Shown here one piece after another: positions 7,650-58,827 of a DNA stretch of 64,000 nt (within the stretch, counting starts at the first letter, position 1; each line of letters starts with the position of its first letter). This DNA is from an uncultured Myxococcales bacterium (GTDB lineage Bacteria; Myxococcota; B64-G9). Position numbers and translations under genes: made by a program. Location: NCBI GenBank assembly GCA_964513625.1, contig CAZENH010000001.1:241642-305641 (forward strand), written 5' to 3'. Below the pieces are notes generated by a model, which ran no database searches, was not told where the DNA came from, and was given only the letters and a program-made list of their open reading frames with translations.

Positions 7650-7682
7650 GTTCGTTGCCTGAAGGCTACAGAAGCGGCTACA

Positions 7683-15087: not shown

Positions 15088-15105
15088 CGAAACTTCAAAG
15101 TTTCG
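15088..15105. promoter_or_regulatory. perfect 18-nt palindrome CGAAACTTCAAAGTTTCG immediately after the activator stop codon. It could be a terminator-like hairpin or a dimeric binding site.
   Basis: Seen directly in the sequence, no poly-T tail. An AT-rich stretch and a GGAGG SD at 15133-15137 lie before ATG 15157. Confidence 0.3.
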
Positions 15106-15156
15106 CAGGTTGGTGATAGTATTGAAGAATAATGTATTACCCGGAGGCGTAAGACC

Positions 15157-28029: not shown

Positions 28030-29679
28030 TTGGCTCAATTGCAACGCGTTTGCATCTTTCAATGGTCTTGGAGGGCAGCCAGATTGGTCGAGATCATCGT
28101 CGATCGTAAGCGGGCGGTGCACGAGAAGAGACGCTGGGTCAGGCTGACCCGCACCTGTAACAACCACTGCCTCTTCTGTCTCGATTCCGGAATTGTCGGC
28201 GAGAAAATACGGGCAGTCGACGAGATCCGCGCCGAGATCGACGAGGGACGCAGAGATGGTTGCGAACGCCTGATTTTGTCCGGTGGAGAACCCACGCTGC
28301 ACCCGGATTACCTGGATCTGGTTGCCTATGGCGCCGGGCTGGGTTACAGCTGGGTGCAGACAGTGTCCAATGGCCGCATGTTTTCATATTCTTCGTTTGC
28401 CGCTCGCGCAGTCAAATCAGGGCTTTGTGAAGCCACTTTCTCCATGCATGGACACGAAGCGAAACTGCACGACCGCCTAGTGGGAGTAAAAGGTGCTTTC
28501 GATCAAGCCATCAAGGGAATGGACAACCTCAGGAATCTCGGGATCGTTGTCAACGTCGATATTGTTCTGACCGGCCTGAATGCTGAGCAACTACCAGAAA
28601 TAGTCGAGTATTTCATGCAATCCGGGGTGCGCGAATTCGACTTGCTGTGGATGGTGCCTTTCGGCTCGGCCTGGCGGAACAGGCACGAACTGTTTCTGGA
28701 ACCGGAATCGGCCTTGCCGCGCTTACATGAAGCCATACGGCGTGCCAGGGCCGCCGGCGCCGTGGTCTGGACGAATCGCCTGCCGCCGCCGTTGCTGGAA
28801 GGACACGAGGATCTCATACAGGATCCCCACAAGCTTCACGATGAAGTTCGCGGTCGGTTGCCCGAATACATGGAATTGATCTCGAGCGGGGAGCCCTTGA
28901 GATGCAATCAACCCGAGAGGTGCCGTCAGTGTCCCATGGAGGGGTTCTGCCGGTCCCTCGAGAGCCTATTGTGCGAGACTGCCGAAGGCGGGCCGACTTC
29001 ACTAAGCGTCAATGCTGACTGCCAGATTGAATCCGGGATGAAAAAACTACTTGCCGGTTCCTCACGACTGCGAATCCACGCCCGGGATCAAAAAAGACTC
29101 GCTGAATTCATCGGATCCCTGGAATTGGACGGACAAGCTCTCATACTGGTTCTCGATTTCATACCGGATAGCGATGGGCTGGATTTCATTGCTGGATTGG
29201 GAGAAAATGTAGTCAGGATGGCCTCCGGTGTTCCAGATGTGTTGGAGGCGATACTGGCCGGGTGGCCGGGTGAAGTCGAGGTCATGCTGAACCGGGCGAC
29301 TGAAGACTGGGTTGCCGAGAGAATAGATTTTATTTGCTTACAGACAGATCGCTTGCTGTTTTCTGCGGAACCCATTGCAACTAATCCTGCTGAAGCTCTA
29401 AGGCCACTTGCAAGATACGGCATACGCTTACTGAATCTTCCGCGATGCCTCCTTGCCGGTGCAGTGTCAGTTGACGAGACCGAGCCTGTGGCTGTCGAGG
29501 CTGTAATGGGGCTTGCCGCGGGAGAGTTGGCAGCCTTCACCGAACATTACATCAGTCATTGCCACAGGACATACTCTTTGCGGTGCAAAAACTGTCAGTG
29601 GTGTGCGTCATGTAAGGGTCTACCCGTGAATATGATTCGCGCCCATGGTTTTGACGCTCTGTGTCATCCATCCACCTGA
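28030..29679 (+). CDS. radical SAM protein with C-terminal Cys-rich segments
   Basis: RLTRTCNNHCLFCLDSG. C-terminal CNQPERCRQCPMEGFC and CKNCQWCASC. The start could instead be TTG 28084, which is preceded by GGAGGG. Confidence 0.7.
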   Translation: MAQLQRVCIFQWSWRAARLVEIIVDRKRAVHEKRRWVRLTRTCNNHCLFCLDSGIVGEKIRAVDEIRAEIDEGRRDGCERLILSGGEPTLHPDYLDLVAYGAGLGYSWVQTVSNGRMFSYSSFAARAVKSGLCEATFSMHGHEAKLHDRLVGVKGAFDQAIKGMDNLRNLGIVVNVDIVLTGLNAEQLPEIVEYFMQSGVREFDLLWMVPFGSAWRNRHELFLEPESALPRLHEAIRRARAAGAVVWTNRLPPPLLEGHEDLIQDPHKLHDEVRGRLPEYMELISSGEPLRCNQPERCRQCPMEGFCRSLESLLCETAEGGPTSLSVNADCQIESGMKKLLAGSSRLRIHARDQKRLAEFIGSLELDGQALILVLDFIPDSDGLDFIAGLGENVVRMASGVPDVLEAILAGWPGEVEVMLNRATEDWVAERIDFICLQTDRLLFSAEPIATNPAEALRPLARYGIRLLNLPRCLLAGAVSVDETEPVAVEAVMGLAAGELAAFTEHYISHCHRTYSLRCKNCQWCASCKGLPVNMIRAHGFDALCHPST

Positions 29680-33387: not shown

Positions 33388-33416
33388 TTGACAGGCGACT
33401 TCCGACAAACTAGGTT
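33388..33416 (+). promoter_or_regulatory. candidate sigma-70-like promoter TTGACA-17-TAGGTT upstream of the hxs-like operon
   Basis: Hexamers read directly. An AAGGGAG SD at 33441-33447 precedes ATG 33458. Confidence 0.4.
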
Positions 33417-33457
33417 TGAGCGGTTGTCGCCATGCCAAGCAAGGGAGTGCCTGTACC

Positions 33458-33883
33458 ATGGACACGAGAATAGAGGCCGTAAAAAATCGCGTTTTATGTG
33501 AAATTGACGAGAAGGTTTTCCCCCGCGGGGTTGTGGTCAGCACCGCCTACCTGTTTTTAGAACGCTGCTACGTGCGTCTTGAGTCGGCGCCCAAGGGACG
33601 CATAGTCGTCCAATTAAAGGGCAAACGTAAGACAGCCAAGGCACGGCTGCAGACCCTGGCTGATGAGTTCGGCAACGAGTTGATGCACCAGTTGATGCGC
33701 GACCAAGTCGCCGAGAAAACCAACGGGTTGCGGGAAATCCTGGTTGGGCGGGCGCTGCTTTCGGCCGTGCCGGCAGGGGAAGAGGGTTCTTTAGCTGAAT
33801 CCGAGGAAGAGCAGGATTACCTCGACGATCCCCTGGGGATCGCCGTTCCCTGGGAAGAGAAATATGGCGACGAAGAACAATAG
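33458..33883 (+). CDS. small HxsD-like protein, paralog 1 (141 aa from ATG 33458), with an acidic C-terminal tail
   Basis: It aligns to the next ORF: FPRGVV...VRLESAPKGRIVVQL...TAKA...LADEFGNEL against YPRQAL...IEFSKEGSKTIVNF...VAAKVPDEFTNFAL. SD-supported start. The track's 33416 start adds 14 unlikely residues. Confidence 0.4.
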   Translation: MDTRIEAVKNRVLCEIDEKVFPRGVVVSTAYLFLERCYVRLESAPKGRIVVQLKGKRKTAKARLQTLADEFGNELMHQLMRDQVAEKTNGLREILVGRALLSAVPAGEEGSLAESEEEQDYLDDPLGIAVPWEEKYGDEEQ

Positions 33884-34112
33884 CCGCCTTGCAGGAGAAG
33901 CCAAGGCTACACTCAGGCTCGATTTGGCTTTCTACCCCCGGCAGGCGCTTGACAGGGCCAGGGAAGCCTTCTCCAAACTTGCTGACATCGAGTTTAGCAA
34001 GGAAGGATCGAAAACGATTGTCAACTTCAGCCATATGCGGACCGGTGTCGCGGCGAAGGTGCCCGACGAATTTACGAATTTCGCGTTGGCCTGCACGGTG
34101 TCCGGACAATGA
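33864..34112 (+). CDS. small HxsD-like protein, paralog 2 (82 aa)
   Basis: Paralogous to 33458..33883. ATGA translational coupling into the downstream rSAM. Its position and size fit the small partner protein of His-Xaa-Ser systems as I remember it. Confidence 0.45.
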   Translation: MATKNNSRLAGEAKATLRLDLAFYPRQALDRAREAFSKLADIEFSKEGSKTIVNFSHMRTGVAAKVPDEFTNFALACTVSGQ

Positions 34113-35590
34113 AGGCGTTTCGCATTCCCGAGGTTCATAGCCAGAAACTCATGCCGCTACGCTTTCGTGAACTCGATGGGCGAGTGTTGCTGACCAACGA
34201 CGCCGGAGAGCACGTCTGGCTCGAACGCGACGAGTTCGGAGATTTCCTGGCCGGAACACTCGCCGAAGACGGTCCAATATTCGGCAAGCTTCAGAAGAAC
34301 AATTTCGTTCGCCAGCCGGACAGCGAGAAGGCGGTTATGGATAAGCTGCACCGGCGCAGCGACCACCTCTTGCAGGGTCCCAACTTGCATATCGTCATCT
34401 TGACACTGCGCTGCAACCAGAACTGCGTATACTGCCATGCCAGTCGCAAGCCGCAGAAAAGCAAGGGCTTCGATATGAGTATCGAGACGGCCGCGCGTGT
34501 TCTGGACGTGATTTTTCAAAGTCCCTCGGATGAGTTGACCATCGAGTTCCAGGGAGGGGAGCCGGCCTTGAACTTCGATGTATTGAGATATTTCGTCGAA
34601 GAAGCCTATCGCAGGAACAAGGACGTAGGGCGACAGCTATACTTCAGCCTGGTAAGCAACCTGAGCGCGTTGAATCAAGAGCAGATTGACTTCCTGGTAG
34701 ACAACGGGGTGATGGTCTGTACCTCTATTGACGGGCCTCAGGAGCTTCACGATCACAATCGGCGTTTTTCCAAGAAGAGCAGCTACCTGGAAGCACTGGG
34801 AAGGATCGAGCAGTTCAACGAAGCCTATCGCAAGCGTGAACTCGACCCCGAGTTGGCCTACGTCAACGCCTTGGCCACCGTTTCGCGCTCTGCGCTTGCC
34901 GACCCTAAAGCACTGGTCGACGAGTACGTGCGCTTGGGCCACAAGGTTGTTCACCTGCGGCCGCTAAACCCTTTCGGAATGGGACTCAAAATATGGTCTC
35001 GCGAGGGCTACACGGCTGGGGAGTTTCTGAAGTTCTACGAGCAGGCGCTGGATTACATAATCGAGCTTAACAAGCAGGGCGTCGAGATCATGGAGAAGAT
35101 GGCGTCGATCATGTTGACTCGCATTTTGACCGACGAGAACCCCAACTACATGGATCTGCGTTCTCCTTGCGGGGCCGGCCTGGGCCAGCTTGCTTACAAC
35201 CACGACGGTCGGGTGTATACCTGTGACGAGGGGCGAATGGTTGGGGCCATGGGAGATGACCTCTTTTGCATCGGGGACGTCCACCAGGATGGTTATTCGG
35301 ATATTATCCAGCACCAGGGAGTGCGCACATTGTGTGTGGCCTCTTGCATCGAGGGACTGCCTGGCTGTTCGGATTGCGCCTACGTTCCTTATTGCGGCGT
35401 CTGCCCGGTCTACAACTACATAATGGAAGGCGACCTGGTTGCGCGAAGCTCCTCAAATGATCGTTGCCGCATCCAGAAGGGTATGCTCGACATGCTTTTC
35501 TTGCGTCTGCGCGAGCCCGGCCTTCATGATCTTCTGAGCCGCTGGACCGAAACCAAGGACCGTTCAAGCGTCTACAGCAGGAAAACCTGA
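34109..35590 (+). CDS. radical SAM/SPASM maturase (HxsB/HxsC-like), ~100-aa N-terminal extension
   Basis: LRCNQNCVYCHA. C-terminal SPASM-like CGAGLGQ...TCDEG...CVASC...CSDCAYVPYCGVCP. Confidence 0.8.
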   Translation: MKAFRIPEVHSQKLMPLRFRELDGRVLLTNDAGEHVWLERDEFGDFLAGTLAEDGPIFGKLQKNNFVRQPDSEKAVMDKLHRRSDHLLQGPNLHIVILTLRCNQNCVYCHASRKPQKSKGFDMSIETAARVLDVIFQSPSDELTIEFQGGEPALNFDVLRYFVEEAYRRNKDVGRQLYFSLVSNLSALNQEQIDFLVDNGVMVCTSIDGPQELHDHNRRFSKKSSYLEALGRIEQFNEAYRKRELDPELAYVNALATVSRSALADPKALVDEYVRLGHKVVHLRPLNPFGMGLKIWSREGYTAGEFLKFYEQALDYIIELNKQGVEIMEKMASIMLTRILTDENPNYMDLRSPCGAGLGQLAYNHDGRVYTCDEGRMVGAMGDDLFCIGDVHQDGYSDIIQHQGVRTLCVASCIEGLPGCSDCAYVPYCGVCPVYNYIMEGDLVARSSSNDRCRIQKGMLDMLFLRLREPGLHDLLSRWTETKDRSSVYSRKT

Positions 35591-35614: not shown

Positions 35615-37054
35615 ATGCCGAAAACCGGGGACGATATCCGCGCATTGTTCTCGGCGACCTCGGGTGAATGGGAGATCGCAGAGCTTCAGCGCGGACTTGC
35701 CAGTTTGCTGCTTTGTATCCGCGCCTCCAGCCCGCCCGATCGTGAGGTCACACTTTGGATAACGCCCCGTAACGATTCCGAGCCTGCTTTCGGACGCACC
35801 AAGCGCTTCAATATTGCCCTGCGTGGCGAGGGATATTCACAAGCCGAATGCGATCTGGCGGCGGCGGTCATCAAGCAGATCTCAGCACAAGAAATGGATT
35901 TTCCCGAGATTAGTCTGAGCATGCCACCTGCACTCGGCCTGCATTCACTGGTGCTCAACGTTTCTAATCGTTGCAACCTCAAGTGTCGCTTCTGTTTCGA
36001 AGACAAATCGAGGCGCACGGCCCCAATGCCGAGCCTTCAGGAGATACGCAGGACGTTTGAAAATGACGATCCATCGAAAGTAAGAAATGTGATGTTCATG
36101 TCCGGTGAGACCGTGCTGAGAAAGGATGCGCTTGCCCTGGTTGGAATGGCCCACGAGATGGGATACGCGAATATAGGGTTGGCTACCAACGGCACTTATT
36201 TCACGAGCAAGGAAAGGCTTGAGCCATTTCTGCAAGCGGGCCTGAATGGCCTGGAGCTTTCGATTCATTCAATGAGCCCGGAACATGCCAGCTATCTCTC
36301 GGGCAGGTCATTTACACCCCTGAAGCAGCGCCAGTGCCTGGAGGTAGTCGACACACTAACTGGTGAATACCCGCTGCATAGCACGATCAACACGGTCATC
36401 AACTCGGTGAATGTCGGAGATTTTCTCGATCTGGTGGGCATCATTGAACGGGATTTTCCCAGGATAAGACCGACCTATCATGTCAAATACACAGAGGCGA
36501 TTGAGAAGATCAGAGACAGAATCAAGATTGCCAGTTGGCCGGAAATCCGGAAAGCCGGTATTGTACGCGAGTTGCCTGAAGAAATTCACCCTCGTATTAA
36601 TTTCGAGAATTTTCCGCTTTGCACCATTTCGCCTTGCTACTACCTCAGCTCAAACCTTATTAGCTTCCTTGTTTCCGATGCCTACAGCTACTTCAATCCG
36701 GGTGACAATGAGAATTTGGTCACCGCCGATGCATTCAGATCCAGAAAAACCTGTTTCGCCGACGAGTGCGCTAGCTGCAACCTCCAGTTTCTCTGTTGTG
36801 GAATGAGTAAAGCCTATTTGGATTTATTTGGTAGTTTGGGGCATTGTGCCCCTCAAGATGCCGAAGCGCATCAGGTGCTCAAACGAGCCATCGAATTTCG
36901 CAAAGAGAACAAGCTGGACTATTCGAGCGAGATCGAACAGAAAATTGGAGATACCATCGGTCTCCTGCGGCGGATTTTACGCGCCAGAATGCAGTCTGGT
37001 CTCGGCCGATCATCAGTTGGGGAGGATGCAATTTTGCGTCAAATACTACCTTGA
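35615..37054 (+). CDS. second radical SAM/SPASM-twitch maturase (HxsB/HxsC-like), ~118-aa N-terminal extension
   Basis: SNRCNLKCRFCFEDK. C-terminal CFADECASCNLQFLCCG. AGGAGA SD. Confidence 0.75.
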   Translation: MPKTGDDIRALFSATSGEWEIAELQRGLASLLLCIRASSPPDREVTLWITPRNDSEPAFGRTKRFNIALRGEGYSQAECDLAAAVIKQISAQEMDFPEISLSMPPALGLHSLVLNVSNRCNLKCRFCFEDKSRRTAPMPSLQEIRRTFENDDPSKVRNVMFMSGETVLRKDALALVGMAHEMGYANIGLATNGTYFTSKERLEPFLQAGLNGLELSIHSMSPEHASYLSGRSFTPLKQRQCLEVVDTLTGEYPLHSTINTVINSVNVGDFLDLVGIIERDFPRIRPTYHVKYTEAIEKIRDRIKIASWPEIRKAGIVRELPEEIHPRINFENFPLCTISPCYYLSSNLISFLVSDAYSYFNPGDNENLVTADAFRSRKTCFADECASCNLQFLCCGMSKAYLDLFGSLGHCAPQDAEAHQVLKRAIEFRKENKLDYSSEIEQKIGDTIGLLRRILRARMQSGLGRSSVGEDAILRQILP

Positions 37055-37108: not shown

Positions 37109-37507
37109 ATGTCCAAGGATAAATTTCCGAAGGCGGAGAAGAGCACACAGGCTTTTCTCACCAAGGACGAAAAGAAGCTGACTCGTCGAGACCTGCTCTC
37201 GACTTCCAGCGTGGCTCTGCTCGCGGCCGCCGGTACAGCGATGATCCCTGGTAAGGCTGGGGCATCGACTGTTTCAAAGGCGCTAAAGCTACGCAAGAAG
37301 GCGCCAGGCGTCGGTGGGATATCGGGCAAGGATCTGTCGCACTGCTCGCACGGCTCGCACGGGTCCCACGGCTCACACGGGTCCCACGGCTCTCACGGGT
37401 CCCACGGCTCACACGGGTCCCACGGCTCACACGGGTCCCACGGCTCACACGGTTCGCACGGGTCCCACGGTTCGCACGGATCTCACGGATCTCACGGGTC
37501 CTGGTAG
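37109..37507 (+). CDS. hxsA: His-Xaa-Ser repeat precursor protein (HxsA-like). It has a twin-arginine-type signal peptide followed by SHC(SHG)17SW.
   Basis: [52 protein letters not shown]|[24 protein letters not shown] then 18 consecutive Ser-His-Xaa triplets. Strong SD. It lies immediately downstream of two rSAM-SPASM genes. Confidence 0.8.
37337..37504 (+). repeat. perfect in-frame 9-nt (18-nt super-unit) tandem repeat TCN-CAC-GGN x18 encoding (Ser-His-Gly)n
   Basis: tcccacggctcacacggg is repeated with only synonymous third-position changes. Confidence 0.95.
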
Positions 37508-37511
37508 CCCT

Positions 37512-39311
37512 TCAGTCCTTTGGTTTTCTGCAAACCAATATCCAAAGCGTGCTTTTTGTTTCATCGGTTGTGAATTTCTGTTCGGTAGCCAACCCGCATT
37601 TTTCACAAAGCTCTTGAACTTCCTCCAGGTGGAGGTTTGTAAGATGCCCGAAAGGCAATCCAGATTGTGACTCTACCCGCTGTGTGACTTGAGCTTTTCT
37701 CAGCACTCCGAAAACCTCGTCCTCGGCCAGGATAATGCGGCCGCCGGGAACAGTCAGGGCTGCCATTTTCGAGACGGCGGTTTTGATTGATGGCAGATGA
37801 TTCAAGCTTCTCAGCGCACAGACTGTGTCATAATTAGGCTCGCTTCCGTGAAAATCATCGAAAGTCGTTTTTTCGAAGAAGATGTTTTCCCCCTGTTCGA
37901 TGCTATCAATATCAGGGTCAATACCGAGATAGACCAGGCTTCCTTCGTCGATTGCCGGAAGAATGGCATCCAGATAAGGACTCTGGCCGCAGCCGACATC
38001 CAATAACGTCCCCCGCGCTGTCGCAAGAACACTTCGGAGAATCTCCACGGCTCGCTCGAAAGAAGGCTCTGCTGTTTGCTCAAAAACTCCGCCGCATAAT
38101 GAGCGTATTGGGCACACCGAACAATTCTTTGAAAGAACCAGTCGCTTGAGATCGCGGCCTAGGTCATCCGAAAGCAACTTGTCACTTGTATCCAGGTAGA
38201 CCTGTCCAAGGTCGCGAATTGCGTGTCCGATGGTCTGGTCTGAAAAATCCCGGCTGGACGTATGAAAGACCTGGATACGCTCATCGCCCAGGTAGACGGC
38301 CATGCCCCGCACGGGATCGGGAGGAGGCAGACTGCCGGACTGGATGGGGCAACTTCGAGGCGAAAACGGCACGGGCACCGAGGGCGGCTTGAGGTTGAAC
38401 GAATTTGAAATATTCTGTGTGAGCGGATGCAACTCACCGTCGCCGCGGTTTGCAAGATATTGTTCGAATACCCCCCGACAGCGCCTGCGCAGGCTGCATT
38501 GCGAACAGAGAGATCCGAAGCCACGGTTGAGATCGTCGATTGGGTGCCAGTCGTCCTCGAATGCTTCGGACATGATGAAGAATCCATCCTCGCGCAAACC
38601 CGACTCGAGAGGATGGATGTTGTCGGGTAGCAGACACAGGGGAAAACCGTCGACTGCGTACCTTACTCCTTCAAAATCAGGTAGTTGTTCGATGATTCCT
38701 GCTATCGTCTCCGATGCGAGCTTCAAGGATGGCACCAGATCCTCGAAGTTGTCTAGAGCGTTGCCCTCCGGCTCGATCATCGAAAACTTCAAGCGCACCG
38801 GTGCAAGTTTGGCTGCAAGAGCGGGCATTCTTTCGAGGCTATCGATGTTCCAGGCAGTGACCACAATGTTAATAGTTAAATCGTCTATTTTTCCCGAGAG
38901 ATATCTCAATCCCTTGATGGTTTGGTTGAAAGATTTAACTTGCGTATGGCGGTCATGAAGCCCCGCCTCGGGAGCGCAAAGCGAAACGTAGACATACTCG
39001 AGTCGGCGCTCGATCAACTGTTCGGCAAGACTCCCATATGCCAGCATGCGACCGTTGCTAACCAGTCCTAGAGCCATATCCGCATTGCGTATTATGTTTG
39101 TGATATCAAGCAGATCAATCCGGATAGTGGGTTCACCCCCGGAGAGCACCAGCATGTCGGCGCCAAGGGAGGCTGCCCGCTGGATCTTTTTTTCAAGCTG
39201 CTCGATGCTAGAATCGATTCCCCGGTGCGGGGATGAGTGGCAGAAGACGCAGTTATTATTGCAGCTGTAACCGATCTTCAACAACGCCTTTCGCGATTGA
39301 CTCTTGAACAT
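37512..39311 (-). CDS. radical SAM (SPASM-like) and class I SAM methyltransferase fusion protein
   Basis: N-terminal half has [14 protein letters not shown] plus [12 protein letters not shown].../[12 protein letters not shown] Cys clusters. C-terminal half has [13 protein letters not shown] (methyltransferase motif I). I chose start ATG 39311 (MFKSQSRK) to avoid a 110-nt overlap with the upstream gene. It is convergent with hxsA, 4 nt apart. Confidence 0.7.
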
Positions 39312-39315
39312 GATG

Positions 39316-40314
39316 TCAGAGTCTGCCCGAAAGCCTGGGCCAAAACTGCGATCGAAGCGAGAAACGCATGTTTGAGCGTCTGTCATATTCGTCGAGCGCC
39401 GATGACAGGCAATCTTGCTTGCCAAACATCGCTCGCAGCATCAGCAAGCGGGAACTGTTCGGATAGATTTTTTCAAACTGCGTGATGGTTTCTTTTCCCT
39501 TTATTGTCTCGAACACGTGCAGGTCCTTTACGCATTCTCCGGAGATCTTCTCGGAAAGCTGCCCTGAACGGCAAGCCGACTCATCGCCGTTGCAAAGCGC
39601 CAGGCAAAAAGGTTCGAATTCACCGAACTCCTTGCACCTTGAAGCTTGTCGCTTTGACAGGATCTCGCATGTTGCGTGCATTTTTTCAGGGCTCATACCA
39701 AGAATGTCGGCTGCCTGATCGGCGAGTTTGCCGTGACAGTTTCCTCCATAGAGAACCAACATACGTGCCATGTCTAGGCGACAGCCCTTTCGCAGTCTGG
39801 GATCAATCCCACCCAATAGATCACATACGTTCGGGTTCCGGGAAACCAATGATTGGCAATTAGACCAGTTTGTGACTATGTCCCTGAGTGTATCGTCGCA
39901 AGCGCTCTCTGGATTGCTTGGCATCTGTCTTAATGTACTCGAGATGGAAGCTGTCTTGCTCCATAAAGGCTTAATAGTTGCCAGCAAGTCTTCGTAGGAT
40001 GGTTGCTTTGCGGTTCGCTCGCTGGCGACCTCTGTCAGAATCTTAGACAGACTTGCACGGGCCTGGAGATGAAGGTTCCAGAGCGCAAAATCGACTGGAA
40101 ATTCGCTGTATTCGTCCAGGTACATCTCGAGATCGAAGAACGAATCAAGGACTCGTTTCTCGATACTTCGGCCCAAGTACTCAACATACAATCGAATTCC
40201 TTCACGCCTGCCTTGACAAAAGCCTGCCTCGGCCCCGCGTGAGCCGGCCAACGCCAGGAAGGCAAATGTCAGGGTCCCGGCGGCCACCAGATTCGAACGA
40301 AAACGAGGTCTCAC
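39316..40314 (-). CDS. secreted cysteine-rich hypothetical protein (332 aa, ~20 Cys)
   Basis: Signal peptide MRPRFRSNLVAAGTLTFAFLALAGSRGAEA. No recognisable enzymatic motif. Confidence 0.45.
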   Translation of the reverse strand: MRPRFRSNLVAAGTLTFAFLALAGSRGAEAGFCQGRREGIRLYVEYLGRSIEKRVLDSFFDLEMYLDEYSEFPVDFALWNLHLQARASLSKILTEVASERTAKQPSYEDLLATIKPLWSKTASISSTLRQMPSNPESACDDTLRDIVTNWSNCQSLVSRNPNVCDLLGGIDPRLRKGCRLDMARMLVLYGGNCHGKLADQAADILGMSPEKMHATCEILSKRQASRCKEFGEFEPFCLALCNGDESACRSGQLSEKISGECVKDLHVFETIKGKETITQFEKIYPNSSRLLMLRAMFGKQDCLSSALDEYDRRSNMRFSLRSQFWPRLSGRL

Positions 40315-40457: not shown

Positions 40458-42707
40458 ATGCCGGAGGCCGTCATCATACAGCCGCCGTTGCTTCTCTCGA
40501 AGGAGTTCATCGACTATCCTTACTTCTCGAACCTAGGCGTCTACCAGGCGGCTTCCATTCTGAGAGGTTGTGGCTTTCAGGTCGCAGTAGTCGATGGCTT
40601 GATCGACGATGATGGCCTGCGCGAGATTGGAAAGCGGGCTTGGCTGGGAGAACCAAGAGACACCTTTCTTGAAAAGCTGGCTGGTATTCGCGCCGATTTG
40701 ATTGTCGTGCATGCATCCTCTTTTTCACGTACCGATCCCGGCAGAGACTGGCTTGTTGAAATAATGAACGGGCTGCAGGCGACAAGGCACGATTTGCTGG
40801 TCATGGCAGAAATGGTCACGGGCGGGATGCACTATCTCGAGACTGATCCACGTGACTGGCTGAACGAGATTCCCGGCCTGGATCTGTACCTGCGCTATGA
40901 GGGGGACAGACTGCTCGCCAGGCTCGCCAGCGAGCTTGCGGACGACCTGAGGCCGGAGCGTGAAATCTGGGAGGAACGACTTTCCTTTCCTCTGGATGAC
41001 TTGCCAGCTCCAGCCTTCGATCTGCTCGATTTCGAGGGCTACTTTTCGTTTCTGCAGCGGGCGCTGCAGACCCCCTGGCGGCCCGGACCGATTCCCGCCG
41101 AGCCGGCGCGGACTCTGCCAATAGTCACCGCGCGCGGTTGCCCATATGGATGCGTCTTCTGTTCATCCGGACCAGGCCTGGAAGGCGGCGACAGTCGCCG
41201 CTATCGACCCTTACCCTGGCCCATGGTTGAGTCTTGGATCCGAAGCTGGGTAAGTGAGTTCGGGCTGGAGCGCATCGTGGTGCTCGACGACGTAGCCAAT
41301 CTGGACAGACGACGTTTCAGCGCTCTTTTGGACGTGCTCGAAGAGCTTAAACTGCGCGTCGAATTTCCCAACGGCCTGCGCGCCGATCGCCTTGCAGAAG
41401 ACGACATCCGACGCCTTGCCGGTCTCACCTCGAGTCTCAAGGTGTCGCTGGAAAGCGCGAGTGTACGTGTCCAAAACGAAGTTCTCGGAAAGCGGCTCGA
41501 TCCGCAATCAGTTGAGAGAGTTGCAGAATGGTGCAAGCGGCACGGTCTCGGTTTGCAGGTGCACTACCTGGTGGGCATTCCGGGTGAGAACAGGAGCGAG
41601 ATTGTCCATACACTGCGCACGGCCCGAAGGTATCTCGACAGCTACGGAGCGAGTCCGCTCGTGCAATTCGCGGTTCCGCTGCCGGGCACCGAATTGGACA
41701 AGGTCTGCAGGGAGAAAGGGTACATGCAGGATCAACCCGAAGACTGGCTGGCCTGTTTTCAGCACCATCCCGTCATCAAGACTGCGGAATTCGATCAGCG
41801 ATTTCTCAGGCAGGCAGTTGATGCCTTTCGGCTGGTGACGGCTCCAAGTACGATGCGCAAAGTGATTGTCAACCTGACATATCTTTGCAACAACCACTGT
41901 ATCTTCTGTGCCGTGGGCGATCGAGCCCGCAGGCAGGCCGATACTGACAATGTGAAAGAGGCTTTACTCCGCTACAGAAGCGAGGGATTCGAACTGCTGG
42001 ATATCGACGGGGGAGAGCCAACGCTGCACCCCGGACTTTTCGAAGTAATAGCGCATGGACGTTCTCTGGGTTTCCAGCGCATAACTCTTGTGACCAACGG
42101 GAGGCGACTCAGCTACCGTGCCTATGCGGAGAGACTTGCCAGAAGCGGAGTGGACGAGGTGCTCGTGTCGTTGCATGCGCCTGACGCTGACGGCCAAGAA
42201 CGGATTACGGGCGTTTTCGAGAGCTTCGGCCAGACAGTAGCGGGAATACAGAACATCTTTGCCTGTCTTGGTTCTCCTGATCGTGTCGCCGTGAACACTA
42301 CGCTGGTGGCTGATAATCTGGCCTCTGTGCCGCAATTGGGGCGCTTGCTTACCGAGTTGGGTGTGCGGCGCTGGAACCTGCAGGTTGTCACTCCGTTTGG
42401 CCGGGCAGGGTACGAGCAATTACCGAGCCAGGAAAACCTGCGGCGCATCCTGGGCGATCTGCTGCAAAATCCACCCGGCCGGATGCATATTCAGATCGTC
42501 AATTGCCCCCCTTGCCTGTTGCCGGGCCACGAAGACGCGGCGGCCGCGGATTTCGGCAAGTCATCGCGGGACATGGTCTTTGTGGGCGAAAGTGGTGAGA
42601 ATTTGCAGGCATTCCTGGCTCACAGGAGAAAACAAGATGAACGCTGCCTGATCTGTACCTGGGCTACTTGTTGTCCGGGCATATATGTGTTCGATGACGC
42701 TGGTTGA
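40458..42707 (+). CDS. dual-domain radical SAM protein: an N-terminal B12-binding class B rSAM fused to a second rSAM domain with a C-terminal Cys-rich (SPASM-like) tail
   Basis: First core TARGCPYGCVFCSS (aa ~220). Second core NLTYLCNNHCIFCAVGD (aa ~480). Tail NCPPCLLPGHE...CLICTWATCCPG. Confidence 0.75.
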   Translation: MPEAVIIQPPLLLSKEFIDYPYFSNLGVYQAASILRGCGFQVAVVDGLIDDDGLREIGKRAWLGEPRDTFLEKLAGIRADLIVVHASSFSRTDPGRDWLVEIMNGLQATRHDLLVMAEMVTGGMHYLETDPRDWLNEIPGLDLYLRYEGDRLLARLASELADDLRPEREIWEERLSFPLDDLPAPAFDLLDFEGYFSFLQRALQTPWRPGPIPAEPARTLPIVTARGCPYGCVFCSSGPGLEGGDSRRYRPLPWPMVESWIRSWVSEFGLERIVVLDDVANLDRRRFSALLDVLEELKLRVEFPNGLRADRLAEDDIRRLAGLTSSLKVSLESASVRVQNEVLGKRLDPQSVERVAEWCKRHGLGLQVHYLVGIPGENRSEIVHTLRTARRYLDSYGASPLVQFAVPLPGTELDKVCREKGYMQDQPEDWLACFQHHPVIKTAEFDQRFLRQAVDAFRLVTAPSTMRKVIVNLTYLCNNHCIFCAVGDRARRQADTDNVKEALLRYRSEGFELLDIDGGEPTLHPGLFEVIAHGRSLGFQRITLVTNGRRLSYRAYAERLARSGVDEVLVSLHAPDADGQERITGVFESFGQTVAGIQNIFACLGSPDRVAVNTTLVADNLASVPQLGRLLTELGVRRWNLQVVTPFGRAGYEQLPSQENLRRILGDLLQNPPGRMHIQIVNCPPCLLPGHEDAAAADFGKSSRDMVFVGESGENLQAFLAHRRKQDERCLICTWATCCPGIYVFDDAG

Positions 42708-42759: not shown

Positions 42760-43497
42760 ATGCTCGAAGCCCCTTTCAAATGGCGCGTGCCCATGGTTGT
42801 TCTCGGGGCGGGAAAAGGGCGCCGACTGGGAACTGCTTCGGGTGGAATTCCGAAAATTCTTCTTCCCATTGTCCCGGCCTCGAATGAAATGCAACAACAC
42901 ACACTTCTCGATCTGTTGGTCCGGTCCTGGAAACCCTGGGCGAGCCGGTTGTACGTGGTGGCGTCTGCAGATACTGGTTTGATTCGTGCTGCCTTGAAAC
43001 GTCAGCCGCTGCCTGGCGAGATACACCTGCAACCAGAGCCTGATGGAACAGTGAATGCCTTGCTGTCTCTTGTACGGCATCTCCCCGAACGTTTCATTGT
43101 CGTTCTGGGTGACTGCCTGTTAGGTGGTCGCTTCGATGACCCCATTGGAGGCCCTTTCCCGGGTGTCGGCGTTTGGCAAGAGGCGGATCCAGACTCGATA
43201 AGGGCAAACTTTGCGGTTAGCTTGGATGCTGAGCGCATCAAGGCGGTTGAGGAGAAACCCGGCAAAGTAGATGGCCGACAGTGCGGTATGGGCGTTTATT
43301 TCCTGGACCGTGGTTTTCTAGAGAGCATTGCAGATTTACCTTTAAACGCCCACGGTCGTCGCGAGCTTACCGACGCACTTGAATATTTTCTTGCCAACGG
43401 CGGCGAACTGAGGGCATCGAATTTTTCAGGCAGCTACATAAACATAAACACTCCGGCAGACCTTCAAAGGGCCCGACAGCTTTTTGGCAATTCATGA
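42760..43497 (+). CDS. sugar-phosphate nucleotidyltransferase-family protein
   Basis: MVVLGAGKGRRLGTASGGIPKILLPIV N-terminal NTP-transferase signature. Confidence 0.6.
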   Translation: MLEAPFKWRVPMVVLGAGKGRRLGTASGGIPKILLPIVPASNEMQQHTLLDLLVRSWKPWASRLYVVASADTGLIRAALKRQPLPGEIHLQPEPDGTVNALLSLVRHLPERFIVVLGDCLLGGRFDDPIGGPFPGVGVWQEADPDSIRANFAVSLDAERIKAVEEKPGKVDGRQCGMGVYFLDRGFLESIADLPLNAHGRRELTDALEYFLANGGELRASNFSGSYININTPADLQRARQLFGNS

Positions 43498-45098
43498 TCT
43501 CGGTATTAATCATTCCAAGTCGGCTGGAAGGCCTGGCAGAGAGCATGGCCGGCATCACGGCCCAACTGGGTCCGGACGACGAACTGCTGGTGGCGCCTCT
43601 CTCTCGCTCAGTGAAGTTTAGGGCTGTCGTCGCCAATCTGGTCTCCGGTATATCCGGCCGGCGTGCGAAACTGATACACACAACGGATTACCTTCCAGAT
43701 GTTATGCATGGGAGTTTTTTACTGCCTTTTCGGGAAGGGGAAGTGCTGCTTCCCGGGGCGCTTTCCAGGCTGAGCGATTTCATAAGACAAGATCCGGAAC
43801 AAGACTGTGTAAGGGTGTGGCCACCGGGGGTTGCGCCCAACAATGCCCGTCGCCGGCTCTTTGGAGTGCCCTTGGCGCTGAAACTCGGCAGGCCATACCT
43901 GTTGCACAAGACTCTGTTGCAGCGCCTGAGTCGCCGAGGTCTTCTGCGGACGTTGCGCGATGATTCAGCGGACATCATCCTGGCTATGGAGAATGCCGGA
44001 GGTGGAATCTGGTTTTCAGGAGACCTGCTGGAGTCACAAACCAGCGCGAGTCTGAGCAATCTTGATCGAGATCAAACACTAGCCCTGGTGAAAAAGTATG
44101 TTAAACAGCGCAAACTCGAGGTTTCCGTTGGCGGTATGGATACTGCCGTCGAGGTTCAGGCCGACCGCCCTCGCGGGATCGACATAGAACTGACTAACCG
44201 CTGTAACGCGCGCTGTATTTTCTGTCCCCAGCGCAGCATGGCAAGCTACGGAAATATGTCTGAAGATGTGTTTGATAGAATACTGCAAACGATCCGCGAA
44301 GAGCCGATCGGCACGATCTATTTCATTGGTCGGGGCGAGCCACTGGTGCATCCAAAGTTTATCGATTATATCAGGAAGATCCGCGACTTGACGGGAATCG
44401 AGTTCGAGTTGTTTACAAACGGCCTCGCCCTGGTTCCCGAAGTGGTCGATAATCTTGCCGAGCTGAACGACTCGTTTTTGAATATTACCATCAATGTCAG
44501 TCTGCATTCACTCAAGGAGGAAACTCATCGAGCGCTGACCGGCACTGATTTGGTGGTAATTGCCCAGAACCTGCGCTATCTCCAGAGTCGGGCAGACAAA
44601 CTTGATGTCAGCTACGCTTTCGTCACGAACAAGATCAACGAAGAAGAAATGGCGTCACTGCGCCGCTACCTCGACCGAACGGGAAACCGTAAGTGGGACG
44701 TGTCCCTGGTTTACAACAAGGGCGGGCTGATCGAAGAGGGGCCCCTGTTCGACTGGGATTTCTATCGTCGACAACTTACTCTTGAAGATTCTGCCTCCGG
44801 TTTGACGGGTCCGTGCTGGTACTCGTACTGCGGAGCATACTATTTCGTGAACTATCGCGGCCAGTTCACTCTGTGTCATGACGATTTTCGCGAGGAAACA
44901 ATCCTGGGTGAGGTAGGCAAGGACAGCCTCGATACCATCGATTCCCGCGTGGCAGAGCTGCACCGACAGGGTGGCGCACCTCGTTGCCGACGTTGCAACA
45001 AGAGACAACGCGAGCTATTTCATGGAGAAAACATCGACTCCGAGTCTCAGGTCAAGGGGCGTTTCACTATCGAGGCCAGGGAGTCATCGAGAGTATGA
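43494..45098 (+). CDS. radical SAM/SPASM protein with a ~220-aa N-terminal non-rSAM domain
   Basis: IELTNRCNARCIFCPQRS. C-terminal CWYSYCGAYYFVNYRGQFTLCHDDF...CRRC. ATGA overlap with the upstream gene. Confidence 0.7.
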   Translation: MISVLIIPSRLEGLAESMAGITAQLGPDDELLVAPLSRSVKFRAVVANLVSGISGRRAKLIHTTDYLPDVMHGSFLLPFREGEVLLPGALSRLSDFIRQDPEQDCVRVWPPGVAPNNARRRLFGVPLALKLGRPYLLHKTLLQRLSRRGLLRTLRDDSADIILAMENAGGGIWFSGDLLESQTSASLSNLDRDQTLALVKKYVKQRKLEVSVGGMDTAVEVQADRPRGIDIELTNRCNARCIFCPQRSMASYGNMSEDVFDRILQTIREEPIGTIYFIGRGEPLVHPKFIDYIRKIRDLTGIEFELFTNGLALVPEVVDNLAELNDSFLNITINVSLHSLKEETHRALTGTDLVVIAQNLRYLQSRADKLDVSYAFVTNKINEEEMASLRRYLDRTGNRKWDVSLVYNKGGLIEEGPLFDWDFYRRQLTLEDSASGLTGPCWYSYCGAYYFVNYRGQFTLCHDDFREETILGEVGKDSLDTIDSRVAELHRQGGAPRCRRCNKRQRELFHGENIDSESQVKGRFTIEARESSRV

Positions 45099-46168
45099 GT
45101 CGACTGCGAATATACGCCCTGTTTGGAGACGATGGAAGATACGCGGGCCGGGTGTCGTCGGATGAGAAGCATGAGATGCACTTCAGCTCTTACTCGTTCG
45201 ACAACCTCGTCGAACGCGCGGGCACAGACAGTATTCGTGTCCGGCGCTCGCGGATCGATCGGGTTCTCGATGAAATGGAAGAGTTCGACGCCGTCTTTTC
45301 CGACAGCCCCGACCTGATGCTGCTGCACTATGTGCGCAGGAAACGAAAGATGCGCCCCATGCCCTGGCTGGTCAACGAGGTTGACCGATTCAAGACGGCA
45401 GGCTTGGTGCGCCGCTTTGTAGAAGATCACTACGGGGAAGACCCTTTGGCCGGGGTCCTACAAGCAGGCGAAGTTCTCTGGTTCACTATTGTGAGTGGCC
45501 TTGACGGCTACTATCGGAAAATGGGAATTCCCGCGGAAAACATCTTCTACCTTCCCATGGCGCGATCGTCCATCGGTTTTTTCCTGCCCGAACTGATCGG
45601 CACCCAAGATCGAGATACGACCGAATCGCCGGTCAGCCGGATCGATTGCCCAATATCTCCCGGCGCCATCCTGGCAATCGGCTCGCATGAGCGCGACTAT
45701 GCTTGCCTGGCTGAGGCTCTCTCGGGAACAGAGAAGACAGCAGAGATTGTTTGCAACTTGTCTCTATATAGGGACCGACCCGCGGGGCCCTTGATTTGGC
45801 ATGACTCAATGCCCGCCGAAGAGTATCTGGAGGGAATAAGGCGAGCCTCGATGGTGATCTTGCCGCTTAGGCCAGTCGATCGCGCTCTGGGACAGATGTC
45901 CTGCGCTCTGCCCATGAGACTTGGAAAGGCGATTATTGCAACGCAGATGCCTTCTTTGAGTGCTCATTTGCAAAACGGCGAAAGCGGCCTGACTTACCCT
46001 GCAGGTGATGCCGAGGCTCTCAGGGTATGCATACTCAGGTTGGCAGCAGACGGGGAAGAGCGCTCACGGCTCGGCGCGGCTGCGGCACACCGCGAGAGGG
46101 AGCTTTCGGAAATGGCCGAGGAAGCAATTGATAAAATTCTCGAGCGCCTGACAGGCTTGAAGGCCTGA
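45095..46168 (+). CDS. GT4-like (GT-B fold, glycosyl transferase group 1) glycosyltransferase
   Basis: C-terminal ...GESGLTYPAGDAEALRVCILRLAADGEERSRLGAAA... (E-x7-E-like region). ATGA overlap places the start at 45095 (MSRLRIY). Confidence 0.6.
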   Translation: MSRLRIYALFGDDGRYAGRVSSDEKHEMHFSSYSFDNLVERAGTDSIRVRRSRIDRVLDEMEEFDAVFSDSPDLMLLHYVRRKRKMRPMPWLVNEVDRFKTAGLVRRFVEDHYGEDPLAGVLQAGEVLWFTIVSGLDGYYRKMGIPAENIFYLPMARSSIGFFLPELIGTQDRDTTESPVSRIDCPISPGAILAIGSHERDYACLAEALSGTEKTAEIVCNLSLYRDRPAGPLIWHDSMPAEEYLEGIRRASMVILPLRPVDRALGQMSCALPMRLGKAIIATQMPSLSAHLQNGESGLTYPAGDAEALRVCILRLAADGEERSRLGAAAAHRERELSEMAEEAIDKILERLTGLKA

Positions 46169-46195: not shown

Positions 46196-47590
46196 ATGAG
46201 GACGGCAGGAAAACGAGTGATGCTTGTCTCCCCGCCCGGCCGTTGCACGCCGCATGGCTCATTTCATGCCGTGCCTCCGGAGGGGCTGGCCAGGCTGTCT
46301 GCTTGGTTAAGAAGAGAGGGATTCTACGTCGCGACGCTCGATGTACTGATCGAGGGCTACGATCTACGGCAAGTCGAGGGAAAGACCGTCAGATACGGTA
46401 TCTCCGCAGATCAAGCTGCTTCCAGAATAGCCGAGTGGTCACCGGATTTGATTGGATTCAGTTGTCCTTTTACCTGCACTGAACCGGACCTCATCCAGAT
46501 TGCGGGAGCCTGCAAGTCGCTGCTGCCTGATGCGCCTATCGTTTTTGGAGGAGCTCACGCGGCCGCCGATGCTCTGGCCTTGCTCGAGAAGGAACCGGCG
46601 GTGGATCTCGTTGCCCTGAGCGAAGGAGAACTGGCGCTTGCTTCCCTGCTTTCAGCTATGCAAGCTGGCGGCAACCCGAACGAAGTGGACGGTTTCGCCT
46701 CGCGAAAAAGTGATGGGGGCATTCAGAAGCGACCGCTGAAGCAGTTTCTCGATCTCAACAGGCTTCCCGAGCCCGCCTGGGATCTTTTTCCCATCGACGC
46801 TTATGCCAGGGCAAACGCTCCACACGTTGGAGCGGGTTTGGGCAGACGCTATCTGCCGACCACCTGGAGCCGTGGTTGCGTCAATGCCTGCACATACTGC
46901 CTGACACCACGTCTTTGGGGTAGAGGCAACCATCGAAGGCGCCCGATAGAGAATGTACTCGATGAGGCCAGGCATTTAAGATCCGAATACGAAATCGAGG
47001 AACTGCATGTCGAGGACGACTGTCTCTTAGCGGACAAGGCCTGGTTTCATGCGATCCTGGAGGCATTATCGAGTGAAAATCTCGGCCTGCTCCTTGATTT
47101 TCCCAACGGCCTGGATGTAACAAATCTAGACAGATCAACAGCAGTCAAGTTGGCGCGGGCGGGCACGATCAGAGCCTGCCTCGTGTTCGACGCCGGCGAG
47201 CCCGAAGCTCCCTTGAAATGGGTCGGGAAGCAAGTGTCACAGGAGCAAGGCAGCGAGGCTGTGGCCATGCTGCACGATGGGGGCATCTCGTTGCTTGGTT
47301 TTTTCATGCTTGGCTTTCCGGGACAGACCATCGACGATATGCGCGCTACCGTCGACTATGCGCTCTCACTGGATCTCGATGCATTGTCCATTTTTATCGC
47401 CACTCCATTTCCCGGAACACCCCTGCATACCTATTGCGAGCGCAAGGGCCTGCTGGTGCCAGATCGTGATCTCAGGGACTATCGTTTCTCCACTGGTCAT
47501 ATTCGCACTGCTGAATTCGGCCCCGAGGACACAGAGCGGTTTCGACACGAGGGTTGGCTAGAGTTTATGAATCGGAAGAGAGCTCCTTAG
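46196..47590 (+). CDS. B12-binding (class B) radical SAM protein
   Basis: RVMLVSPPG...ATLDVL B12-domain-like N-terminus. SRGCVNACTYCLTP. Alternative start 46220. Confidence 0.8.
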   Translation: MRTAGKRVMLVSPPGRCTPHGSFHAVPPEGLARLSAWLRREGFYVATLDVLIEGYDLRQVEGKTVRYGISADQAASRIAEWSPDLIGFSCPFTCTEPDLIQIAGACKSLLPDAPIVFGGAHAAADALALLEKEPAVDLVALSEGELALASLLSAMQAGGNPNEVDGFASRKSDGGIQKRPLKQFLDLNRLPEPAWDLFPIDAYARANAPHVGAGLGRRYLPTTWSRGCVNACTYCLTPRLWGRGNHRRRPIENVLDEARHLRSEYEIEELHVEDDCLLADKAWFHAILEALSSENLGLLLDFPNGLDVTNLDRSTAVKLARAGTIRACLVFDAGEPEAPLKWVGKQVSQEQGSEAVAMLHDGGISLLGFFMLGFPGQTIDDMRATVDYALSLDLDALSIFIATPFPGTPLHTYCERKGLLVPDRDLRDYRFSTGHIRTAEFGPEDTERFRHEGWLEFMNRKRAP

Positions 47591-48468
47591 CGAGCGTCCC
47601 AACACGCCTGCAGTCCGATATCAACATCGTATTCAGGTGACCAACCCAGCGCCGCCAGCCTGGCGCAGTCTGCGCGCTCCTCACTCGGTTCATTGGGACG
47701 CATCAGATGTGGATCCTGAGTGATGTCGAGATGTTTGCCGGTAATTGCAGACAGCATCTTTGCAAGTTCGCCCGGCGATGCAGATCTGCCGCTGCCGACG
47801 TTTAGTGGACTGAAAGATCCAGAAGGCGGTGGATTCGACAGGCTTATAATAAAAGCGCTACAGACGTCATCGACGTGTATCCAGTCGCGCCGCCGATCCA
47901 GCTCTCCCAGGCGAAGGGGACCGCCTTCGCAGAAGCCCTCGATCAGGGTCGGCACGAAAAACTCATGTGAGCCTCCGGGGCCGTAAACATTGAACAAGCG
48001 CAGGCTGGTCGCTGCAATCGAAGTGTCGGCCACGGCAGTCTCGACGATTTTTTCCTGGATCAGTTTCAGCCTGCCCAGGAAAGTTGTCGGATCCAATAGA
48101 TGGTCTTCACCGATCGGCAACCTACTCGGCCTACCGTAGATTTTCCCACTAGAGGCCAGAATAACGTGCTTCACAGCGCAACTGTTTGCCAACAGCATGA
48201 CATTGGCCGTTCCAACGGCCGCGGTTTGCAGGGCTTTCAAGGGGTAGCGACTACGAAACCCGGGCGAGGCTGGAAAGGCAAGATGTACTAGCGCATCGGC
48301 CGGTGTCGAGCGGGCAAGCAGGGAGTCCAGGTCGTTAATGTCCGCCTTGATCCTGTCAAGTTCGAGCGGTTCGTGACCCGCTCTCGACAGCGCTGTCACA
48401 AGATGTCGGCCGATGAAGCCCTTCGATCCGCTGACCAGAACCCGCATCTTATGGCTACCTTTGCTCAA
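47587..48468 (-). CDS. NAD-dependent epimerase/dehydratase/reductase (extended SDR)
   Basis: MRVLVSGSKGFIGRHLV Rossmann motif, ~293 aa. Confidence 0.75.
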   Translation of the reverse strand: MSKGSHKMRVLVSGSKGFIGRHLVTALSRAGHEPLELDRIKADINDLDSLLARSTPADALVHLAFPASPGFRSRYPLKALQTAAVGTANVMLLANSCAVKHVILASSGKIYGRPSRLPIGEDHLLDPTTFLGRLKLIQEKIVETAVADTSIAATSLRLFNVYGPGGSHEFFVPTLIEGFCEGGPLRLGELDRRRDWIHVDDVCSAFIISLSNPPPSGSFSPLNVGSGRSASPGELAKMLSAITGKHLDITQDPHLMRPNEPSEERADCARLAALGWSPEYDVDIGLQACWDAR

Positions 48469-56471: not shown

Positions 56472-56501
56472 TTGACAGTCGGCGCGTGTGCCCGATATTA
56501 T
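56472..56501 (+). promoter_or_regulatory. candidate promoter TTGACA-18-TATTAT upstream of the gmhA-like gene
   Basis: Read directly. A GGAGG SD at 56516-56520 precedes GTG 56531. Confidence 0.3.
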
Positions 56502-56530
56502 CCATAATCAAAACCCGGAGGATTTCTGAA

Positions 56531-57133: not shown

Positions 57134-57149
57134 TTCCGCGAGGTGATAC

Positions 57150-58820: not shown

Positions 58821-58827
58821 AATTGCG

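Follow-up and report, generated by a model that had tools for sequence, protein, structure and literature searches.

The window analysed here is a stretch of 64,000 nucleotides from contig CAZENH010000001.1 of an uncultured Myxococcales bacterium, and it harbours a gene coding for one polypeptide of 749 amino acids (aa) in which two radical S-adenosylmethionine (radical SAM, or rSAM) cores follow one another. The original prediction had proposed this arrangement, that is, a class B domain and a second, SPASM-like radical SAM domain in a single frame followed by a cysteine-rich tail, with the two motifs at residues ~220 and ~480. Inspection of the open reading frame (ORF) and domain searches place the motifs at residues 228-235 and 477-484, so that both predicted positions are correct, and the protein, hereafter the double rSAM protein, can be divided as follows:

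40458..42707, + strand: double radical SAM gene, a single ORF of 749 aa plus stop, with Pfam Radical_SAM in two stretches
40458..40982, + strand: N-terminal Rossmann-like domain, cobalamin-binding-like (approximately residues 1-175)
41100..41837, + strand: radical SAM core 1, class-B type by its NCBIfam class-B matches, AprD4 and invariant residues (approximately residues 215-460)
41850..42407, + strand: radical SAM core 2, HxsC-like, with GGEP at residues 518-521 (approximately residues 465-650)
42408..42704, + strand: predicted C-terminal auxiliary-cluster domain with C686, C730, C733 and C739 (Cx2Cx5C; approximately residues 651-749)

The frame runs uninterrupted through 749 codons and a stop, and its ATG lies 9 nucleotides (nt) downstream of GGGAAGGGA, a Shine-Dalgarno-like element. 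The motif of core 1, CPYGCVFC, is encoded by nt 41139-41162 and carries the triad C228/C232/C235, while that of core 2, CNNHCIFC, is encoded by nt 41886-41909 and carries C477/C481/C484. A check with domain models, as had been proposed with the original prediction, finds Pfam Radical_SAM (PF04055) twice, in distinct stretches (E 5.9e-33; 114.8 bits, the gathering cutoff being 29.5), a match that is, as a profile score, far above chance. The NCBIfam matches are also split by half, with class-B families at residues ~179-454 and others at ~467-684. Specifically, the N-half resembles the Sden_1168 P-methyltransferase, AprD4, HpnJ, BzaD and PhpK families, and the C-half resembles HxsC4, which is its best match, MoaA, BlsE, PqqE and NirJ-type proteins, all of them scoring far under the family cutoffs. 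No curated NCBIfam model passes its cutoff, and the sources name the family merely 'radical SAM protein'.

The two-core architecture is widely conserved. When 5.8 billion proteins were searched, ~80 clusters with lengths of 740-835 aa aligned to 98-100% of the query, with an identity of 29-100%. These full-length clusters are drawn from independent assemblies (NCBI, JGI, ENA and Logan), and wherever a source is named it is Myxococcota or Deltaproteobacteria. In a set with a single genome for each GTDB species, 258 stretches encoding relatives were detected; the best 80 are nearly all full length (residues ~1-747), and most of them are labelled as myxobacteria (Polyangiaceae, Sandaracinaceae, Archangium, Kofleriaceae and others). 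Myxococcota genomes with the full-length fusion thus number at least 80 at species level, and both CX3CX2C motifs are present in all full-length members. In an alignment of 52 homologues, which includes relatives of the window protein down to 28% identity, every member matches Pfam Radical_SAM, and both cysteine triads, the GGEP of core 2 and seven residues of core 1 beyond the triad (N305, G306, R308, A309, D310, S330 and E332) are invariant. The same holds for four of the six cysteines of the tail (C683, C686, C730, C733, C738 and C739), namely C686, C730, C733 and C739; the cysteine-rich tail originally described is real. The linker at the junction is short and nearly without insertions or deletions across the family, and the distance from one motif to the other is 241-253 aa in 51 of the 52 members, the exception being 232.

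An AlphaFold2 model built on this alignment (mean predicted local distance difference test score, pLDDT, 93.9; predicted template modelling score, pTM, 0.90) contains no disordered segment. It consists of an AprD4-like class-B half, made of a Rossmann-like domain and a barrel, a short linker and a second barrel similar to those of BlsE, SkfB and viperin. The high pTM implies that the arrangement of the domains relative to one another is confidently fixed in the model. Both triads sit in a predicted triose-phosphate isomerase (TIM)-barrel-type fold, which gives the second motif the structural context expected of a radical SAM core, and the Rossmann-like domain precedes the barrel of core 1, as in class B enzymes. 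By sequence profile, the top solved relative of the N-half is AprD4 (E 8e-29) and that of the C-half is BlsE (E 2e-26), at a low identity of ~20-27%.

Two terms of the original prediction need to be restricted. 'Class B' is here applied to the predicted fold of the N-half, with no cofactor implied, because the window protein has no match to the B12-binding domain PF02310, even at E<=1, and only weak matches are found in 20 of the 52 relatives (best E 1e-4). AprD4 itself is not known to use cobalamin, and in view of this and of the missing B12-binding match, the double rSAM protein may or may not be cobalamin-dependent. 'SPASM-like', in turn, stands only in part: the tail has no match to Pfam SPASM (PF13186) and shows four invariant cysteines rather than the seven-cysteine SPASM motif. 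Their spacing, C686 followed by Cx2Cx5C, is common to two HxsC-like paralogues encoded in the same locus, and the number of cysteines suggests that the tail could hold one auxiliary [4Fe-4S] cluster of the twitch-like or partial SPASM kind.

Could an assembly or frameshift artefact have joined two neighbouring genes? Neither a hidden frameshift nor a hidden stop is seen in the ORF. The GC periodicity at the three codon positions (GC1/GC2/GC3) is uniform throughout the ORF and thus gives no sign of a change of frame, the AlphaFold2 model is confident through the junction, and the identical fusion, with the identical junction, occurs in the independent NCBI, JGI, ENA and Logan assemblies. Moreover, relatives keep the fusion in ~80 clusters and at least 80 genomes, and the N-half and the C-half were not found as adjacent separate genes at the relatives' loci checked, those of P0071, P0083 and P0135 among them. 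Frameshift and mis-assembly were rejected on the strength of these clusters and genomes, the uniform periodicity and the fixed junction, and such an artefact is extremely improbable. In other words, the gene almost certainly encodes a genuine two-core enzyme, and by sequence comparison the fusion is genuine and ancient.

The genes upstream of the double rSAM gene give an indication of its possible function, as they include components of a His-Xaa-Ser (HXS) maturation system. Their co-occurrence was counted in 46 related loci whose 10-kb flanks are complete, where genes were assigned by best match to the window components. The relevant genes of the window are:

28030..29679, + strand: HxsC-like rSAM protein of 549 aa (HxsC 111 bits, HxsC4 103.8 bits; 23/46 loci)
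33416..33883, + strand: HxsD (TIGR03976, 56 bits against a cutoff of 50; 24/46 loci)
33864..34112, + strand: HxsD-related small protein, HxsD_rel (NF038315, 54.6 bits against 41)
34109..35590, + strand: HxsB radical SAM/SPASM maturase (TIGR03978, 519.7 bits against 370; 24/46 loci)
35615..37054, + strand: rSAM protein in the positional HxsC slot, not HxsC by score (HxsC4 45.8 bits; 3/46 loci)
37109..37507, + strand: HxsA4 precursor, the proposed substrate (twin-arginine translocation (Tat) signal TRRDLL, then HCS-(HGS)17-W; NF038313, 101.4 bits against 55)
37512..39425, - strand: HxsC-like rSAM fused to a SAM-dependent methyltransferase (Pfam Radical_SAM and Methyltransf_23; HxsC 113.5 bits, below cutoff; 20/46 loci)

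HxsA4, HxsB, HxsD and HxsD_rel, all above their curated cutoffs, lie 3-7 kb upstream of the double rSAM gene, the HxsA4 precursor (132 aa) being 3 kb away. Of the four-gene set, HxsD, HxsB and HxsA4 pass and the order D-B-(rSAM)-A is kept, but no window protein reaches the HxsC or the HxsC4 cutoff. Instead, there are three HxsC-like domains scoring ~100-113 bits, contained in the 28030 protein, in the rSAM-methyltransferase fusion and in the C-half of the double rSAM protein. These share the signature CNN[HN]CxFC, GGEPT and Cx2Cx5C and are mutual best paralogues, the C-half being 33% identical to the 28030 protein (E 5e-34) and 29% identical to the rSAM-methyltransferase (E 8e-25). The N-half is nearest to the rSAM proteins of the locus with B12-binding domains (28% identity to the 46196 protein across residues 27-445). 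The rSAM protein in the HxsC slot has no HxsC match; it best matches TrsS, Tes and MoaA and is limited to close relatives. The PADLOC defence models gave only weak, generic viperin-type rSAM matches and no HXS model.

The genomic link between the double rSAM gene and the HXS components extends to its relatives. Within 10 kb, HxsB and HxsD are each found in 24 of the 46 loci, an ORF with HGS repeats in 21, the 28030-type rSAM in 23 and the rSAM-methyltransferase, which is divergently oriented in the window and is the most constant neighbour, in 20; at least one of these five occurs in 37 loci. Members at 29-34% identity still adjoin the rSAM-methyltransferase, and one of them is also near HxsD and a giant protein with Ig-like/ASH domains. 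In the 21 loci with a repeat ORF the precursor design is uniform, consisting of a leader, HCS, (HGS)n and W, with n ranging from ~8 to 59.

Some further features of these loci may be mentioned here. HxsA4-type precursors with 34-59 consecutive HGS repeats are encoded at L030:16080-17471, where there are two tandem genes, and at L082:2-541. Directly upstream of HxsD in the window, at 29719-33375, lies a gene for a predicted lipoprotein of 1218 aa with ASH/HYDIN-type Ig-like domains and Cys-rich repeats, and similar giant ASH proteins adjoin HxsD in L003, L006, L007 and L087. Between the rSAM-methyltransferase and the double rSAM gene, at 39316-40314 on the - strand, is a gene for a 332-aa cysteine-containing protein with a signal-peptide-like N-terminus, which has no family match and whose homologues hold the same position in L003, L005, L006 and L007. 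As listed, this ORF overlaps the 5' end of the 37512-39425 ORF by 110 nt, and probably the start codon of one of the two lies further in. A locus whose double rSAM relative is 59% identical (L005:18232-22238) carries a nitrogenase-like trio, that is, two Oxidored_nitro subunits and a NifH-like ATPase, beside its HXS-type cluster.

The radical SAM superfamily and the HXS concept are known, and the HxsA4 and HxsC4 models have already been defined by NCBI curators. In Escherichia coli, HXS is a four-gene antiphage system, HxsD-B-C-A, in which HxsB, HxsC and HxsD are needed to mature the HxS-repeat protein HxsA, the mature form carrying +8 Da on an HxS repeat (PMC13128918). In the model of its authors, HxsA modification centres on an HxsC-HxsD complex, with the chemistry unsolved; 99.7% of the HXS systems studied belong to Pseudomonadota, and a set of just four genes is seen in more than 99.8% (PMC13128918). 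The myxobacterial loci differ from that system in that they encode a poly-HGS precursor, several paralogues of the HxsC-like type and as many as 15 rSAM proteins. With respect to HxsC and HxsC4 (TIGR03977, NF038332), the C-half has HxsC4 as its best curated match and is encoded alongside bona fide HxsA4, HxsB and HxsD, but it scores far under both cutoffs and forms one chain with a complete class-B rSAM enzyme. As the locus holds HxsA4, HxsB and HxsD, the C-half presumably acts on HxS repeats.

Other known radical SAM enzymes resemble single parts of the protein. AprD4 (PDB 6FD2), a class-B-like radical SAM 1,2-diol dehydratase of ~20% identity, has a single core, an aminoglycoside substrate and no second rSAM domain. 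The cobalamin-dependent class B methylases TsrM, TokK, CysS, MgmA and Mmp10 share the two-domain architecture of the N-half, but the double rSAM protein lacks even the weakest PF02310 match. BlsE, SkfB, SuiB, PqqE and MoaA (twitch/SPASM), several of which are peptide maturases, combine a barrel with a Cys-rich C-terminal extension as the C-half does, whereas the double rSAM protein has its four invariant cysteines (C...Cx2Cx5C), no Pfam SPASM match and a second core fused to it. That two radical SAM domains can share a polypeptide is known from FbiC (FO synthase), a natural CofG-CofH fusion that generates two 5'-deoxyadenosyl radicals in one pathway and is encoded by two genes elsewhere (PMC11917521). 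Its domain types, however, are unrelated, with neither a class-B nor an HxsC-like half, and its substrate is a small molecule. Apart from FbiC, a search of the literature on dual or tandem rSAM domains, poly-HGS, HxsA4, HxsC4 and tandem HxsC-like enzymes found nothing relevant. MJ0619, considered as a possible two-motif rSAM precedent, was not used as such, since the papers found to mention it concern archaeal tetraether lipid synthesis (glycerol dialkyl and monoalkyl glycerol tetraethers, GDGT/GMGT).

To our knowledge, few rSAM proteins with two cores occur in nature, FbiC being the textbook example, and radical SAM enzymes have nearly always been studied as single-core catalysts. The claim that such fusions are uncommon nonetheless fails within the clade around the C-half. 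When the C-half alone was searched against 1.84 billion cluster representatives, 179 matches were obtained at E<=1e-30, and 119 of the best 150 contain at least two CX3CX2C motifs (two in 101, three in 16 and four in 2). Predicted tandem cores are the norm in this clade, with architectures that include two or three HxsC-like domains, a class-B domain followed by one or two HxsC-like domains, and fusions to methyltransferases. Among individual relatives, P0064 has three rSAM stretches, P0065 an extra N-terminal methyltransferase, an 891-aa protein of L003 the order rSAM, B12-binding, rSAM, and a 796-aa homologue of the 28030 protein in L005 two rSAM stretches. Both halves also exist alone. P0071 is a standalone N-half of 53% identity that terminates exactly at the junction; no C-half is encoded near it, and its neighbours (L001:951-7461) are an AMP-dependent ligase, ketoacyl synthase III (KAS III), a 78-aa ORF of the size of an acyl carrier protein (ACP) and an alpha/beta hydrolase, a setting that is, by gene content, lipid- or polyketide-like and unrelated to HXS. 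P0135 is a standalone C-half of 45% identity over residues 467-746, whose neighbour is a protein with two HxsC-like domains rather than an N-half. A further candidate for split genes, P0083, was rejected, as its downstream 351-aa gene is not a C-half.

On this gene neighbourhood, the double rSAM protein is best explained as belonging to an expanded myxobacterial 'type 4' HXS maturation system. In particular, our preferred reading, to which we assign a probability of about 0.6, is that it is a maturase with three predicted clusters and that its likeliest substrate is the HxsA4 poly-HGS precursor. The two intact cores, their predicted fold, the conserved fusion and its genomic link to HXS genes are borne out by the data. 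In the mechanism that we propose, for which we infer substrate, order of steps and chemistry, the enzyme would be composed of the N-terminal Rossmann-like domain, the class-B barrel, the HxsC-like barrel, connected through a rigid linker of 5-8 residues, and the C-terminal auxiliary domain. Three [4Fe-4S] clusters are predicted, on C228/C232/C235, C477/C481/C484 and C686/C730/C733/C739, and GGEP would be the SAM-binding motif. By reductive cleavage of SAM, each core would generate a 5'-deoxyadenosyl radical and use it to abstract hydrogen from the repeat unit. On the His/Ser motif, the HxsC-like core might carry out a side-chain modification of the HxsC type or a cross-link, as has been proposed for HxsC of E. 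coli. A second transformation of the same repeat unit might be performed by the class-B core, which would be a C-methylation if cobalamin is bound or another radical rearrangement if, as with AprD4, it is not. The fusion of the cores would let both steps reach each of the many identical repeats, and two consecutive steps on one substrate, as first suggested from the sequence, are plausible.

A number of observations weigh against this HXS maturase assignment. The C-half is far below the curated cutoffs (60.6 against 267.9 bits for HxsC, TIGR03977; 101.7 against 500 bits for HxsC4, NF038332), and the N-terminal domain may or may not bind cobalamin. In nine of the 46 full-flank loci, the 10-kb flanks contain neither an HXS marker nor an HxsC-like accessory. 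For both halves the closest solved homologue (AprD4 and BlsE, respectively) acts on sugars, and the double rSAM gene stands first in a same-strand string that contains glycosyltransferases and in which it is followed by an NTP-transferase, an rSAM/SPASM protein, a GT1 and a B12-rSAM protein. Finally, HxsA4 differs from E. coli HxsA in having no peptidoglycan-binding domain and at least 17 uniform HGS repeats, as opposed to 5 basic HxS repeats. Because of the missing domain and the very different repeat array, the biological role of the E. coli system is not transferable to the window.

The sugar-acting homologues lead to a different proposal, in which the substrate would be a sugar or sugar nucleotide and two radical reactions, such as a dehydration or deoxygenation and a subsequent decarboxylation or epimerisation, would contribute to an unusual glycan made by the surrounding genes. 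AprD4 is an aminoglycoside 1,2-diol dehydratase and BlsE a cytosylglucuronate decarboxylase, and besides the same-strand genes downstream, further sugar genes are present in the cluster. On the other hand, the identity to AprD4 and BlsE is ~20-27%, the NCBIfam scores are far under the cutoffs, and the nearest paralogues of the C-half are HxsC-like proteins. Each sugar-pathway gene, moreover, is found in 1-4 of the 46 loci, as compared to 20-24 for the HXS components, and because of this difference we down-weight the sugar-pathway proposal and regard it as unlikely.

Two other explanations concern the division of labour between the cores. One core might be catalytic and the other structural, cluster-carrying or substrate-docking, with a single radical step as a result. 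The 28030 protein is pertinent in this respect, as its residues 372-533 resemble the C-half while only one CX3CX2C is present in the whole protein; this stretch looks like a degenerate tandem copy of the domain, and its loss of the motif would indicate that degenerate copies are tolerated in the clade. Standalone versions of both halves also exist (P0071, P0135). Yet in the double rSAM family both triads, the GGEP of core 2 and the seven residues of core 1 are invariant in the 52 members, and this conservation, down to 28% identity, argues for a function in both cores and makes a single catalytic core rather improbable. Alternatively, the cores might serve different substrates, for example HxsA4 and the Ig-like/ASH lipoprotein, or a partner enzyme, and be fused for co-expression and stoichiometry. 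The free shuffling of domains in the clade, where class-B, HxsC-like and methyltransferase units are combined in different ways, suggests modular parts, and the giant Ig-like/ASH protein recurs near HxsD. We give little weight to this possibility, as the pTM of 0.90 and the indel-free junction fit better with a co-operating unit and the Ig/ASH protein is, by the criteria applied, found in only 3 of the 46 loci.

If the double rSAM protein is an HXS maturase, this conserved, unstudied myxobacterial family acquires a wider interest. A two-core enzyme present in at least 80 species-level genomes would be linked to a very unusual candidate substrate, a ribosomal poly-His-Gly-Ser chain, and the uniform repeats, together with fused catalytic modules that are separable, could offer a cleaner handle on HXS chemistry, which is unsolved even in E. 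coli. The findings suggest that HXS-type systems perhaps reach well beyond the four-gene antiphage system of Proteobacteria. Were the cores shown to act sequentially on each repeat, this would represent a compact assembly-line logic in radical enzymology. As a more tentative extension, the multi-core enzymes, with two to four cores per chain, could constitute a large unrecognised clade that perhaps works processively along poly-(His-Gly-Ser) precursors of 8-59 repeats, giving rise to a new class of ribosomal product. The number of fused cores would then reflect the steps carried out per repeat, a new enzyme logic, and the product would be a periodic polymer, heavily cross-linked or methylated and, in the lineage of the window, possibly glycosylated, or else many copies of a small molecule derived from His and Ser.

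The sugar genes belong to an exceptionally dense radical SAM cluster at 23581-63949, where 15 rSAM genes, which together encode 16 rSAM domains, are intermingled with sugar-nucleotide genes. Eight of the 15 encode Pfam B12-binding domains, and seven of these align with the N-half. The rSAM genes of the cluster and the two genes directly following the double rSAM gene are:

23581, 25749, 28030, 34109, 35615, 37512, 40458, 43494, 46196, 50165, 51709, 53276, 54965, 59895 and 61406: starts of the rSAM genes
42760-43497, + strand: NTP-transferase (Pfam)
43494-45098, + strand: rSAM/SPASM (Pfam)

The last two co-occur with the double rSAM gene in 4 of the 46 loci, all in the closest lineage. Sugar genes are located at 42760-43497, 44984-46168, 47587-50181, 56486-59958 and 62699-63949, and comprise a SIS isomerase, an NTP-transferase+HAD fusion, a GDP-mannose-dehydratase-like gene, an epimerase, two GT1, a GT2, a carbamoyltransferase and a second NTP-transferase. 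By their predicted families they look like a GDP-heptose or 6-deoxyheptose-type pathway. The set is tied to HXS-type genes only in the closest lineage (the window, L005, L006 and L007), where it may glycosylate the matured product.

As for the remainder of the window, its composition is unremarkable and a tRNA scan detected none. The region at 1738-18528 encodes very large repeat proteins (Invasin/Big_1 and BNR/YCF48-like) and a protein of 1123 aa with 13 MopE-type metal-binding motifs, and a sigma-54 activator is encoded at 13069-15087.

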